Source: Eledone cirrhosa (taxonomy: Eukaryota). From it: a stretch of DNA of 64,000 nucleotides. The translations under genes and the position numbers were made by a program. Shown here one piece after another: positions 1-25,928 of the stretch. Location: positions 177,630,001-177,694,000 of the forward strand of contig OZ024743.1 of assembly GCA_964016885.1 (NCBI GenBank), given 5' to 3'. The first letter of the stretch is position 1. The number at the start of each line of letters is the position of its first letter. A model generated the notes under the pieces. It searched no databases. It saw only the letters and a program-made list of their open reading frames with translations, and was not told where the DNA came from.

Positions 1-327
1 TTTGTATGTAACGCGAACAGGTGCGAAATTTATTATACTTATTGATAAACCAATCAAATTACTTCTCTAAAAACCTGGCGCTTCGAGTCACTTTTTTCTA
101 TATAAAACAAGTAACATTCTAAGATCAACCAGATGTGAGGAAAACCACAGACCCTCCATCTCAACTCTACTTTTGAAAAGCAGAAGAACTGCGAAACCGG
201 TAAAGGATCCAATAAATATATATATTTAAAAAAAAATAAGACTCCAGTTGCATTTTCGATTTCATCTTTTTTTCTTTATACTTTCACTCGGTTATTTTTC
301 ATTTTGTAAAAAATCCTCACTTTCTAA
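1..327 (+). mobile_element. Repeat family A (PLE pLTR/retrozyme-like) with variant HHR at 170-205
   Basis: Near-identical sequence at 1128-1866, 2999-3324, 5170-5528, 14600-14792, 25551-25928 and 60294-60441. Ends in (TA)n. Confidence 0.8.
170..205 (+). ncRNA. Minimal type I hammerhead, U3-A8 variant
   Basis: ctt-TTGAAAA-GCAG aagaa CTGC-GAAA-CCGG-TA^aag: stem I ctt/aag, stem II GCAG/CTGC, palindromic stem III ACCGGT, GUA triplet. Confidence 0.6.
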
Positions 328-500
328 TATATATATATATATATATATATATATATATATATATATATATATATATATATATATATATATATGTATATAT
401 ATATATATATATATATATGTATATATATATATGTATATGTGTATATATATATACATGTACATGTATACGTGTATGTATATATATATATATATATATATAT

Positions 501-697
501 ATAGGAACCAGTAAGACCCCGACAGCTGAGCTCAAGCCGTTTCGACGGCTAATTCTGAGTCCAGAATTAGCCGTCGAAACGGCTTGAGCTCAGCTGTCGG
601 GGTCTTACTGGTTCCTATTACCCACTCTACTACCTCAAGTATTGAGTACTTTGGTGCGTTATGGTCCACCTGGTTCCTTACCACATTTCCTTCGTTA
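501..697 (+). mobile_element. Repeat family B, palindromic element between (TA)n tracts
   Basis: 501-618 is a perfect hairpin with a 4-nt loop at 558-561, followed by a tail. Copies at 9722-9901, 14313-14508 and 56700-56897. Confidence 0.8.
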
Positions 698-1127
698 TAT
701 ATATATATATATATATATATATATATACATATATATATATATATATACGTATATATATACATGTATATGTATATATATGTATATACATGTATATATATAT
801 ATATATATATATATATATATATATATATATATATATATATACATATATATATATATACGTATATATATACATGTATATGTATATATATGTATATACATGT
901 ATATATATATATATATATATATATATATATATATATATATATATATATATATATATATATATATAAATATAGTTTTATAAGTATAGTATTTATAAGTATA
1001 GTTCCCATTTATTTAATATCAATTGAATACTTACTCCAGAAAGTTGTCGAGTGCTTTGAATCAGTTGTAAACATCTATATTTGTTGGATTTACAACAAAT
1101 TAAATATATATATATATATATTTATAT

Positions 1128-1866
1128 AGAAAAAGATGAAATCGAAAATGCAACTGGAATCTTATTTGTAAAAGAATATATATATTTATTTGCTTCCTTT
1201 ACCGGTTTCGCAATTCTTCTGCTTTTCAAAATTAGAGTTGAGATAGAGGGTCTGTGGTTTTTCTCCCATCTGGTTGGTCTTAGAATGTTACTTGTTTTAT
1301 ATGGAAAAAAGTCGCTCGAAACCCCAGGTTTTTAGAGAAGTAATTTGATTGGTTGGTCAATAAGTATAATAAATTTCGCGCCAGTTCAGGTTACAAAGTT
1401 CTTCAAACAAGGGGTGGTGTATAGGTTGTTTTTTCATATATGAGTGAAGTTTTGTTGGTTGATGCAGTCACGTGAATAAGCAAACTTACTCATATATGAA
1501 AAAAACAACCTGACCCCCCCCCCCTTGTTTGAAGAAATTTGTAACGCAAACTGGCGCGAAATGGATTACACTTATTGACCAACCAATCAAATTACTTCTC
1601 TAAAAACATGACGTTTCGAGCCACTTTTTTCCATATTAAACAAGTAACATTCTAAGACCAACCAAATGTGAGAAAACCCACAGACCCTCCATCTCAACTC
1701 TACTTTTGAAAAGCAGAAGAACTGCGAAACCGGGAAAGGAAACAAATAAATATATATATATTTTTTAAATAAGACTCCAGTGCATTTTCGATTTCATCTT
1801 TATACATTCACTCGTATAGAACCCACCGGTTATTTTTTATTTTGTAAAAAAACCTCACTTTCTAAT
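1128..1866. mobile_element. Family A inverted pair
   Basis: 1128-1450 is the diverged reverse complement of 1487-1800. Flanked by (TA)n. Confidence 0.8.
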
Positions 1867-1979
1867 ATATATATATATATATATATATATATATATATAT
1901 ATATATATATATATATATATATATATATATATATATATATATATATATATATATATATACATATATATATATAAAAGTC

Positions 1980-2850
1980 CTATTTAAATTGTTGGGATAC
2001 AACAAGCAAATATTTTTATAACTGATATAAAGCACTCAACAAATAATTGGAGTAAAAATACGATATTAACAAATGGAAACTATATTTATAAACCATATTT
2101 ATTTCATTATACATATTTCAAGGACACCAACTTAAATCATGGTGTGCTTTCATCAGATATAATATAATATTGACCAGTTTTATAAATAAATATTGACATA
2201 CCCTTAAAGAATGCAACCATTACTGTTGGAAGCTCCCGGGAGCTTCCAACAGTAATGGTTGCATTCTTTAAGGGTATGTCAATATTTATTTATAAAACTG
2301 GTCAATATTATATTATATCTGATGAAAGCACACCATGATTTAAGTTGGTGTCCTTGAAATATGTATAATGAAATAAATATGGTTTATAAATATAGTTTCC
2401 ATTTGTTAATATCTTATATATATATATGTATATATGTATATATATATATATATATATATATATATATATATATATATATATATATATATATATATATATA
2501 TATATATATATATATATATATATATATACATATATATATGTATATGTGTATTTATATATATACATGTACATGTATACGTGTGTATATATATATATATATA
2601 TATATATATATATATATATATATATATATATATATATATATATATATTTATACATGTATATATATGTATATATATGTGTATATATATATATATATATATA
2701 TATATATAAATATAGTTTTATAAATATAGTATTTATAAGTATAGTTCCCATTTATTTAATATCAATTGAATACTTACTCCAGAAAATCTGTCGAGTGCTT
2801 TGAATCAGTTGTAAACATCTATATTTGTTGTATTTACAACAAATTAAATA
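1980..2850. mobile_element. Family D pLTR-like element with a perfect 352-bp palindrome (2062-2413)
   Basis: Centre cccggg at 2237/2238, no spacer. Related tails at 965-1105, 2707-2850 and, inverted, 1980-2085. Confidence 0.8.
2311..2375 (+). ncRNA. Type I hammerhead (mirror copy at 2100-2164, minus)
   Basis: tattatat-CTGATGA-AAGCACACC..GGTGTCCTT-GAAA-T ATGT A-TA^atgaaata. Confidence 0.75.
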
Positions 2851-2998
2851 TATATATATATATATACATATACATATATATATATATATATACATATATA
2901 TATATATATACATATATACATATATATATATATATATATATACATATATACATATATATATATATATATATATATATATATATATATATATATATATA

Positions 2999-23229: not shown

Positions 23230-23443
23230 AGTTGACAGTATCGGTAGAGCGTCGGACAACAGGCTTTCCGACATATAGTTAAGGCCCATTACGTTCTGAG
23301 TTCAAATCCATCCGAGGTTAGCTTTGCCTTTCATCCATATGAGATTGATAAAATAAAGTAGCAGTAATTCACGGGATTTGATTTAATCAACTTTCCCCTC
23401 CCCTTCAAATTGGTGGCCTTGAGCCTAAAGTGGAAACAATTAT
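23230..23443 (+). mobile_element. tRNA-derived SINE
   Basis: Same family as 11518-11702. Confidence 0.75.
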
Positions 23444-24635
23444 TGATTTAAAGAAGAGCCAGAGATTATAATAATCGAAACTTGTATACTCCATAGTGTA
23501 TAAAACATGGAGATAACACCCCTTCCATATCACAGCATTGGTATGAAAATATCATCCGAATCCGAACTATGAAAGACACGTGGATTCCATATGTGGACAA
23601 CATAAAATTTGCTGAAGTCAAGGGTACAGGAATTGTCTTCATCGAATTCATCAGGCCGATTACTCTAAAGGCAGATTTGGGTTCTTTCCTGGCAGATCAA
23701 ATGATTGCTACAATCCAAAATATTACTGCAGCCAGTTTTCGTTTGTCACTACCACATTACTCTACAAATGTAGAGCATAAATTTGTTTGTTGTTGGAAGA
23801 AGCTTCTAGATGTCCACATCGCCACTTGATGACCATTGTAAAATGTAGCATGAGAAAGTTATATATTACAGCCAGTCAGATGAAATATTGTTTTCGTCTG
23901 TTGATGAAGAGTGTAATATCGACTACATATAGCAGACTATCATCATATCCATCATCATTAGGAGAGACAGCAGGCACAATTCCACGCCAACAGTCTGTTT
24001 CACATCAATATTTGTAGATCATTCTTGTTAATTCCAATGTCTCTTGTATTGATCATTCTTGTTAATTCCAATGTCTCTTGCTATGATACCCTTGTATCTA
24101 CACTTTCTGTCTTCTAATTCATTGCCCTTAGGTGAGTCAGCACAACTTTACGCCAACAGTTACTGTCTCCCATTAATGTTGGTAGGTTTTCCTTGTATCC
24201 TGTTATCTGTGTTTTCTGGTAGATTATCGCGCCATTAGTGATCATGGCTTCTTCAGATTCCAGATCTACCAAGTTAATGAGGTGTATATATTTTCTGTTT
24301 GTTAAAGAATTCACTGGGTTTTCAATTATATTCATAACGAAAGCATTTACTTTTGTGCAACAGGTATGAATAGTTCACCACCGTAAATTGATAAATTGTT
24401 CAATGTCTTATCATGCACCTTGTATCAGAGTAAAATTTGTTCACTGAGAAAATAAAAATAAATCTGTGTGCCATGCAGTTCAATTCCTCATTGCGATATT
24501 TCCCCTGTCTCTTAAAGGTCTTCACACTATTTAAATACGCTATTTTATAGCATCTCTGCGGACGAACACATCATTCTTTATATTATAAAAACATTTTAAT
24601 TAGAATGCAATAACCATACAAGCTTAGTTACTTAC

Positions 24636-24725
24636 TTGGTTCGAACAAATGTCCTGTGGATACCGGATGAATGAAAGAAAAACCTTCTTGTCCGTTATTT
24701 CCTAATAGATTGCCACCATCACCTC
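24636..24725 (-). CDS. Internal exon, probably of an ALK/LTK-like receptor tyrosine kinase (end of the glycine-rich domain)
   Basis: Pyrimidine tract + CAG acceptor, GTAAGT donor, 90 nt, phase 1-1. Peptide (G)GDGGNLLGNNGQEGFSFIHPVSTGHLFEP resembles vertebrate ALK GGNAASNN..DGEDGVSFISP (recalled, not searched). Confidence 0.55.
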
Positions 24726-24821
24726 CTGCCAACAGGAAACAATTATAAATGTATATTATTTTGAAATAATAAATAAATGGTGACGACTGATATATTTCAG
24801 ACAATATATTATAATTTTAAT

Positions 24822-25127
24822 ATTGCTTTCCGTTTTGGGCACAAGGCCAGCAATGTTGGGGGAGGGAGGAGAACGTCTATTAAATCGTCACCAGTACGTT
24901 ACTGGTACTTTATTTTATAGTGTTAATAATAGTATCTGATTTGGGCACAAGGCCAGCAATTTTGGAAGAGGTGAGAGGAAAGCCGATTAGATCGATTTTA
25001 TCGACTCCAGAAGGATGAAGGTAAATTTAACCTCAACGGAATTTAAAATCGGAATATTAATGGACGTAACTATATGCCACAACGCATGTCGTCCGACACT
25101 CTACTGACATTGCTGCCAATCAGGCGC
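24822..25127 (-). mobile_element. tRNA-derived SINE, two partial copies
   Basis: ggcacaaggccagcaat occurs twice; actggtactttattttat. Reverse complement of the 11518 family. Confidence 0.7.
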
Positions 25128-25550
25128 CCTAAAATGTCAAGAAATAATTTATTCCACAAAATGACGCATGAAGCTAGAACCAATCATTTCAAGAAATGGA
25201 AACCAGTCTCGCCCCTGGCAGATGTACAGTTGCCACGAAAGAGGTAACCTACACTCTTCCTCCATAACTGAAAGGAGAATGCATTGACTGGAGTAAGTTC
25301 AAATAGATAGTTATGGTAGACAATGTTCTTTATAGCCCCAAATATGCTTGCGCACTTCGAACGTACGCAAGCAAATGACTAGGTAACGAGGCTAGGACGA
25401 TAAAGATAAAGGTGAAACAATTAAACAAATGATAAATCAGGTGCTCATTGTACATAAACAACAAGGTTGTTTCAATAGATATATATGTGTGTGTGAAAGA
25501 CAGTATATATATATATATGTGTGAGAGACAGTATATGTATATATATATAT

Positions 25551-25928
25551 TGGCGCGAAAGCTGATGTGCTTATTCAGGTGACTGCATCAACCAACCAAA
25601 CGTCACTAATATATGAAAAAACAAACAGAGACCCCCCCCCCCTGTTTGAAGAACTTTGTAACGTGAACTGGCGCGAAATTTGTTATACTTATTGAACAAC
25701 CAATCAAATTACTTCTCTAAAAACCTGGCGTTTCGAGCCACTTTTCTCCATATAAAACAAGTAACATTCAAAGACCAACCAGATGTGAGGAAAACCACAG
25801 ACCGTCCATCTCAACTCTACTTTTGAAAAGCAGAAGAACTGCGAAACCGGTAAAGGAACCAAATAAATATATATATATTTTTTTTAAATAAGACCCCAGT
25901 TGCATTTTCGATTTCATCTTTTTTCTTT
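25551..25928 (+). mobile_element. Family A copy with intact U3-A8 HHR at 25820-25855
   Basis: Matches 1460-1800. Confidence 0.8.

Follow-up and report, generated by a model that had tools for sequence, protein, structure and literature searches.

The DNA analysed, called the window below, was a 64-kb stretch (64,000 nucleotides) of Eledone cirrhosa (assembly GCA_964016885.1, contig OZ024743.1, positions 177,630,001 to 177,694,000 of the forward strand), from an assembly of 3.0 Gb that is rich in (TA)n. It contained 10 copies of a repeat, family A, present in the window solely as truncated copies of a pseudo-long terminal repeat (pLTR). Family A is probably (about 60% probability) the pLTR of a young Neptune-type Penelope-like element (PLE), with a type I hammerhead motif in which U3-A8 replaces C3-G8, whose cleavage is likely weak or conditional on dimerisation or an element protein, and whose copies were mostly likely made from uncleaved RNA. 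The motif is genuinely of the hammerhead type and sits where such motifs ordinarily occur in PLEs; the U3-A8 swap itself is already published.

Family A copies and their hammerhead motif

The core TTGAAAA was found in 10 of the 10 copies, in agreement with the initial annotation, and the four copies named there as intact (at 170, 5239, 5352 and 25820) carried stem II GCAG/CTGC, GAAA, ACCGGT and GUA, with A at position 17. The other six were damaged in stem I, II, III or loop II. Helix I was CCUU/AAGG (4 bp) in the copies at 5239 and 5352, and CUU/AAG (3 bp) in those at 170 and 25820. These two types of motif differed at positions 2.4 and 2.5, with C2.4 in 45 of 82 copies, and the 3-bp type, to which 170 and 25820 belong, looks older than the 4-bp type.

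The young type was represented by a short inverted copy without a tail at 5141-5313 (-) (intact hammerhead 5276-5239, U3 5272), and by a short copy with a tail at 5313-5530 (+), whose 5' end coincided with the predicted transcription start. In the latter, sequence and folding placed a type I hammerhead at 5352-5389 (+), with helix I at 5352-5355/5386-5389, the core U3-U4-G5-A6-A7-A8-A9 at 5356-5362, stem II GCAG/CUGC at 5363-5366/5372-5375 closed by a 5-nt loop, G12-A13-A14 at 5376-5378, the palindrome A15.1-CCGG-U16.1 (ACCGGU) at 5379-5384, and A17 at 5385, after which the cut is predicted. The older type comprised a copy with a tail at 7-330 (+) (hammerhead 170-205, U3 173) and a longer copy without a tail at 25568-25954 (+) (hammerhead 25820-25855, U3 25823). 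Among the damaged copies, an inverted one without a tail at 1100-1482 (-) (U3 1229; helix I interrupted at 2.3, a G-U pair in stem II) was partnered by one with a tail at 1478-1868 (+) (U3 1706; U16.1 changed). A short inverted copy lay at 2973-3136 (-) (U3 3097; 6-nt deletion in stem II/loop II), a short copy with a tail at 3133-3336 (+) (U3 3160; damaged palindrome), a decayed copy of ~80% identity at 14586-14794 (-) (U3 14752), and, beyond the range given in the initial annotation, a short copy without a tail at 60302-60470 (+) (U3 60341; loop II short of 3 nt).

The core pattern had 12,492 exact matches in the whole genome versus 0 for a reversed control pattern, so the resemblance to a hammerhead is not due to chance; an anchor placed downstream of the motif had 16,942 matches genome-wide. 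In the consensus of 82 copies anchored outside the core, every core position (N3-U4-G5-A6-N7-N8-A9/G12-A13-A14-A15.1/U16.1-H17) was conserved in at least 95% of copies. Helix II had 4 bp including G10.1-C11.1 (pairing probability 0.91). No tertiary contact between loop I and loop II was evident by eye in the family A motif, and PLE minimal motifs are described without that contact.

Searches for CUGANGA miss the family A motif, as the initial annotation had anticipated. The Rfam scan of a 121-base motif region returned no hammerhead match at E up to 10, and the matches listed from scans of the window and the motif were microsatellite or hairpin noise. A control motif of PLE type with the canonical core at window 60589 (-) was missed too, so that the U3-A8 variant was not the cause of the Rfam miss. 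This control belonged to another repeat family and had a minimal hammerhead shape at 60555-60597 (-), with CUGAGGA, a bulged stem II, ACGU and C17. Judged by eye, family A was the most abundant of the hammerhead-like repeats in the window, and within that scope the earlier claim of greatest abundance was correct. The core, stem II and palindrome had also been described correctly, but helix I, the autonomous element and the U3-A17 pair had been overlooked.

The coding element and the 3-8 pair

A GIY-YIG reading frame was reached by walking 5' from long family A copies, and in 17 of 19 loci picked by their endonuclease the motif lay on the same strand, 1.0-1.35 kb downstream of the endonuclease open reading frame (ORF). 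Locus L085 contained a full-length unit, consisting of a first motif (U3 3843) ~200 nt before ORF1 (ATG 4042), a 775-aa ORF2 that overlaps ORF1 and lies in its -1 frame, and, 4,987 nt after the first motif, a second one at ~8830 that was preceded by an inverted truncated copy. The motif thus occurred in both pLTRs, flanking ORF1 and a reverse transcriptase (RT) with GIY-YIG: the Pfam scores of ORF2 were 29.9 bits for GIY-YIG (above the cut-off) and 29.1 bits for RVT_1 (just under it), and protein P0001 had a CX4CX2C linker before the endonuclease, of the type common to Neptune and Nematis. The features of endonuclease-positive (EN+) PLEs were found together, namely RT with C-terminal GIY-YIG, pLTRs, an inverted 5'-truncated partner (within 1.6 kb in 58 of 100 copies) and a one-sided tail (in 62 of 100 copies). 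Family A is regarded as young because its endonuclease copies were 99% identical and many of the scored ORF2 matches were stop-free.

Neptune/Nematis EN+ PLEs (Craig et al. 2021, PMC8557442; statements on the literature, here and below, refer to the available parts of each paper) resemble the family A element in having RT followed by GIY-YIG, a CX2-5CxxC linker, (TA)n targets, tandem or inverted insertions, a one-sided tail and an optional frameshifted ORF1. Based on the CX4CX2C linker, (TA)n targets, inverted pairs and one-sided tail, family A fits the pLTR of a Neptune/Nematis-type PLE, an assignment made by the features in PMC8557442; the RT tree comprised unnamed relatives only. The linked RT-GIY-YIG ORF ruled out a miniature inverted-repeat transposable element or a Helitron hairpin. 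It also ruled out a non-LTR retrozyme, which would consist of head-to-tail, non-autonomous units lacking an ORF; the family A copies are instead the truncated or inverted termini of an element that has coding capacity.

The -1 overlap between ORF1 and the RT-endonuclease ORF contained U UUU UUA in family A, its sister family and three distant relatives, and is likely a programmed frameshift. These sites were at L085:5175-5181, L183:2973-2979, L193:1330, L198:2127 and L203:1267, with a variant in L194; no strong fold was predicted downstream of U UUU UUA. The idea of a frameshifted ORF1 had already been given in the legend to Fig. 1 of PMC8557442. Close relatives of the family A element were also present in records of bacterial metagenome-assembled genomes (L272-L278; P0015, P0040, P0044, P0061), probably as contamination by host DNA.

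The sister family, N2, was 58% identical to family A in the ORF2 protein and 35% in the ORF1 protein, and the alignable parts of the two pLTRs were limited to three stretches: core, CGAAACCGGT box and tail/ORF1 start. The N2 motif had the same U3-A8 core with a wholly different paired stem II (GAUGG/CCAUC), a helix I of 2 bp, and C17. It had 2,066 exact matches in the genome, and U3, A8 and C17 were present in 12 of 12 examined. Descriptors built on CUGANGA therefore undercount ribozyme motifs, here by ~14,500 exact copies across the two families.

Within family A, all 82 copies with an anchor outside the core had U3-A8, as did all 90 of those selected by similarity. Positions 3 and 8 were fixed, with no covariation inside the family. 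The A8G pattern had 36 genome matches, with U3 kept in 30 of 30 distinct copies examined (two rows were duplicates); such copies are read as neutral decay after insertion and provide no test of 3-8 coupling. The family consensus, which had initially been put forward as a means of refutation, was consequently uninformative. An apparent U3-G8 sister in L090 was rejected, as it arose at an inversion junction that joins endonuclease DNA in reverse orientation to the motif's 3' half.

Compensation was instead apparent across families. Loci encoding related proteins in other organisms (87 in all) were scanned with a descriptor that left positions 3 and 8 free, and all 23 distinct matches on the sense strand were Watson-Crick at 3-8 (17 C-G, 4 U-A, 1 A-U, 1 G-C), with 0.15 matches per run in shuffled sequences. 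PLE-linked hammerhead-shaped motifs at L237:1969 and L244:117 had A3-U8 and G3-C8 cores, so that all four Watson-Crick pairs occurred among PLE relatives. In a quick maximum-likelihood tree of 30 proteins, which took in the 28 loci with a motif call and left out the other 59 external loci, family A and N2 grouped together (Shimodaira-Hasegawa-like approximate likelihood-ratio test 99) and fell with three C3-G8 relatives in a wider clade (100), and the U-A state required at least four changes. Covariation across families showed, at the level of sequence, selection on both the fold and the 3-8 pair. From the cross-family pairs and the tree, the U3-A8 swap is common to family A and N2, recurrent among PLEs and probably derived. 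Other hammerhead-shaped families of the genome had C3-G8, the ATATATAT palindrome as helix III, and A17 (L015, L017, L020, L023, L052, L086, L185, L190).

Hammerheads with U3-A8 in PLEs were published in 2014, with ~1,300 matches in S. mansoni and a PLE-linked UUGAAAA core in Fig. S3 (PMC4209133), and natural U3-A8 covariation was reported in 2011 (PMC3088659), so the variant is not new. The S. mansoni Cercyon PLEs (Cervera and De la Pena 2014, PMC4209133) share with family A the type I motif in pLTRs, the U3-A8 core (UUGAAAA in S. mansoni(4)), a short helix I, G10.1-C11.1, a palindromic helix III, and copies that are mostly truncated and single or on opposite strands. Family A differs from them in lacking a bulge between 9 and 10.1, in its 4-bp stem II and 6-nt palindrome, in A17 compared with U17 and G17 in two U3-A8 rows of Fig. 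S3, and in its ~12,500 near-identical copies compared with ~1,300 heterogeneous matches. Shrimp, mosquito, Drosophila and rotifer PLE hammerheads also have a small helix III formed by a 15.1-16.1 palindrome implying a dimer, and the Marsupenaeus row of Fig. S3 has no bulge and A17, but all of these have C3-G8 (PMC4209133). The natural core variants of Perreault et al. (2011, PMC3088659) show the same covariation as family A, and U3-A8 variants are stated there to be active in vitro, citing Przybilski and Hammann (2007), although the available passages gave no rates, either for a minimal PLE motif that depends on dimers or for U3 combined with A17. The present case extends the known U3-A8 PLE hammerheads by one that is homogeneous, high in copy number and accompanied by intact full-length elements.

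Copy ends, predicted cleavage and alternative readings

Copy ends were sampled over the first 25 Mb of contig C1, in 100 copies selected via the downstream anchor. The 5' ends of 46 of them lay at -45 to -36 from U3, 25 copies were longer and 29 shorter, and 2 began exactly at the cut site. TATAAAA was located at -72 from U3, 30 nt before the 5'-end peak, with CCAAT further up. In the longer copy of the window, motif positions and the 5'-end pile-up delimited a predicted Pol II promoter at 25670-25785 (+), with CCAAT at 25700, TATAAAA at 25751 and a start at ~25781. Upstream of CCAAT, at 25670, was what is presumably an E2F-like site. Depth on public contigs rose at the 5'-end peak and fell at the tail end, in a profile of unrecorded run type that is silent on expression, splicing and cleavage. 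On sequence grounds the 5'-end peak is read as the transcription start. Since the 5' ends clustered there, upstream of the motif, copies appear to derive mostly from uncut RNA, and the initial wording that the family "uses" the ribozyme is not borne out. Genome-wide, 297 ends fell around the cut site versus 178 and 152 in controls that were unequal in sensitivity and contamination, with no sharp peak; a small part of the RNA may have been cleaved.

The cleavage triplet overlapped a donor-like GUAAAG, and an acceptor-like site (polypyrimidine/UAG) lay 98 nt downstream in the tail (L085:3870-3967; window 5383 onward), with a similar acceptor-like site ahead of ORF1 in N2. An intron in the 5' untranslated region (UTR) could thereby remove the cut site. 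The excised intron was ruled out as a template for copies, whose ends did not match GT/AG.

In the young-type copy, the minimum free energy (MFE) fold was the hammerhead secondary structure plus a U3-A17 pair on top of helix I (-1.7 kcal/mol, probability 0.44), with helix I at a pairing probability of ~0.57. The possibility of this U3-A17 pair is peculiar to family A. The ACCGGU palindrome is self-complementary, and can form helix III (-10.3 kcal/mol) only as a duplex between two molecules. Published PLE motifs have a helix I of 2-5 bp, and metazoan PLE hammerheads showed no activity as monomers and little as dimers (PMC4209133). Given the two-molecule helix III, the short helix I and the poor activity of those published motifs, family A cleavage is predicted by folding and analogy to be probably weak.

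The Anolis Poseidon PLE (Frangieh et al. 2024, PMC11167929) resembles family A in its hammerhead at the pLTR-ORF junction, AT-rich targets, two 3' ends (with and without a tail), and uncleaved RNA as the main template. It differs in a C3-G8 core overlapping the start codon, a single ORF and its Poseidon clade, whereas family A has the motif ~200 nt before ORF1, two ORFs and a ~60-nt tail. In the Anolis element, reverse transcription begins at two internal sites, cutting by the hammerhead requires protein, and catalytic mutants did not block insertion in vitro (PMC11167929). In the likely course of events for family A, a Pol II promoter inside the pLTR would start RNA ~42 nt before U3, so that 72 nt of 5' UTR would precede the predicted cut site; cleavage would be damped by a two-molecule helix III via ACCGGU, a helix I of 3-4 bp and U3-A17 pairing; and, by the Anolis precedent, reverse transcription would start within the RNA, at one or other of two sites that flank the tail, and proceed to the RNA 5' end, resulting in short copies with or without a tail, often as inverted pairs in (TA)n.

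Several observations weigh against a conditional ribozyme with a compensated core. The C3-G8 version with the family A stem II had 0 genome matches, so that the double change was not seen directly, and a looser C3-G8 pattern gave 6 single matches compared with 144 control matches genome-wide, with no C3-G8 family seen. The majority of the external PLE loci had no descriptor match, one of five antisense matches was non-Watson-Crick (A-A), and the tree was a quick version and not the finished careful one. Neither the older type, with its 3-bp helix I, nor N2, with 2 bp, folded to a hammerhead as MFE. The 5' pile-up could be an RT stop and not a transcription start, and a possible mild enrichment of ends at the cut site would argue for more cleavage than assumed here.

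It is unlikely that the motif derives from a hammerhead but has lost catalysis, and is either retained for a role other than cleavage, such as RNA dimerisation through ACCGGU or protein binding, or passively carried. The shrinkage of helix I to 2-4 bp in family A and N2, the possible U3-A17 pairing, the origin of copies from mostly uncut RNA and the lack of effect of catalytic mutants on Anolis PLE insertion in vitro (PMC11167929) are all compatible with such loss of function. However, U4, G5, A6, A9, G12, A13, A14, A15.1, U16.1, H17 and the 3-8 pair were kept in both families despite pLTRs otherwise diverged beyond alignment, and the 3-8 pair matters in the active fold only (PMC3884650, PMC3088659). 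Distinctly improbable is the converse, an efficient ribozyme acting in vivo at both pLTRs, whose cuts would free an RNA of unit length, possibly circular, that templates long or tandem copies (the model of PMC4209133). The motifs do flank a 4,987-nt unit in L085, 25 of 100 copies reach 5' of the predicted start, and, of the 24 truncation-like ends within the cut window, 11 lay at +30, but just 2 of 100 copies began at the cut site and the first 100 genome matches were spread 34/18/26/22 over +28 to +31 (by eye). Metazoan PLE hammerheads also cleave poorly (PMC4209133), and cutting would be expected to cost the mRNA its cap. Chance resemblance in A/T-rich repeat DNA, finally, is very improbable. 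It would accord with the empty Rfam scan of the 121-base region and with the U3-G8 look-alike that did arise from an inversion junction, but Rfam was equally blind to the canonical-core motif at 60589 (-), and the pLTR position, the rebuilt stem II of N2 and the 23 external matches compared with 0.15 in shuffles speak against it; N2 and the external loci largely refute it. The reading of a type I hammerhead with a U3-A8 pair is backed by its cross-family conservation and pLTR position.

A C3-G17 pair has been proposed as the cause of a loss of at least 300-fold in minimal hammerheads (PMC3884650). We infer by analogy that U3-A17 may be the counterpart of this inhibitory trap, with a weaker U-A pair; the literature search, which did not cover the key kinetic paper, found no test of such a trap. 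A17 was found in 0 of 7 other sense-strand U3-A8 families (4 external, N2 and 2 in Fig. S3 of PMC4209133). Avoidance of A17 among U3-A8 motifs was rejected as not significant, A17 being rare among C3-G8 motifs too. More speculatively, and doubtfully, U3 with A17 could act as a built-in off switch, in which U3 pairs with the cleavage-site A and extends helix I, and the mRNA is cut only after dimerisation or protein binding shifts U3 to A8. If so, the capped mRNA would be protected until ACCGGU dimerisation or binding of an element protein, and N2 (U3-A8, C17) would be a natural trap-free control. The remaining interest of the system lies in this U3/A17 combination and in the natural comparison of family A and N2, which share the core, differ at N17 and offer assay material for the role of PLE hammerheads, while the genomic copy ends suggest copying from uncut RNA.

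Other features of the window

Broken RT/GIY-YIG fragments of other Penelope-like families were found at 19572-20408 (+), 26274-28355 (+), 32609-34505 (+) and 35726-37900 (-). By eye, these fragments (19572-37900) were unrelated to family A, and one at 35.7-40.2 kb was partly duplicated and inverted. Positions 40792-56449 comprised ~15 kb of low-complexity (TA/CA)n sequence, with N gaps near 47.2-47.5 kb and RT fragments of long interspersed nuclear elements at 41498-42300 and 47765-48667 within it. An Rfam tRNA match at 16311-16381 (+) (37.2 bits, above the gathering score) is possibly the tRNA-derived head of a short interspersed nuclear element.

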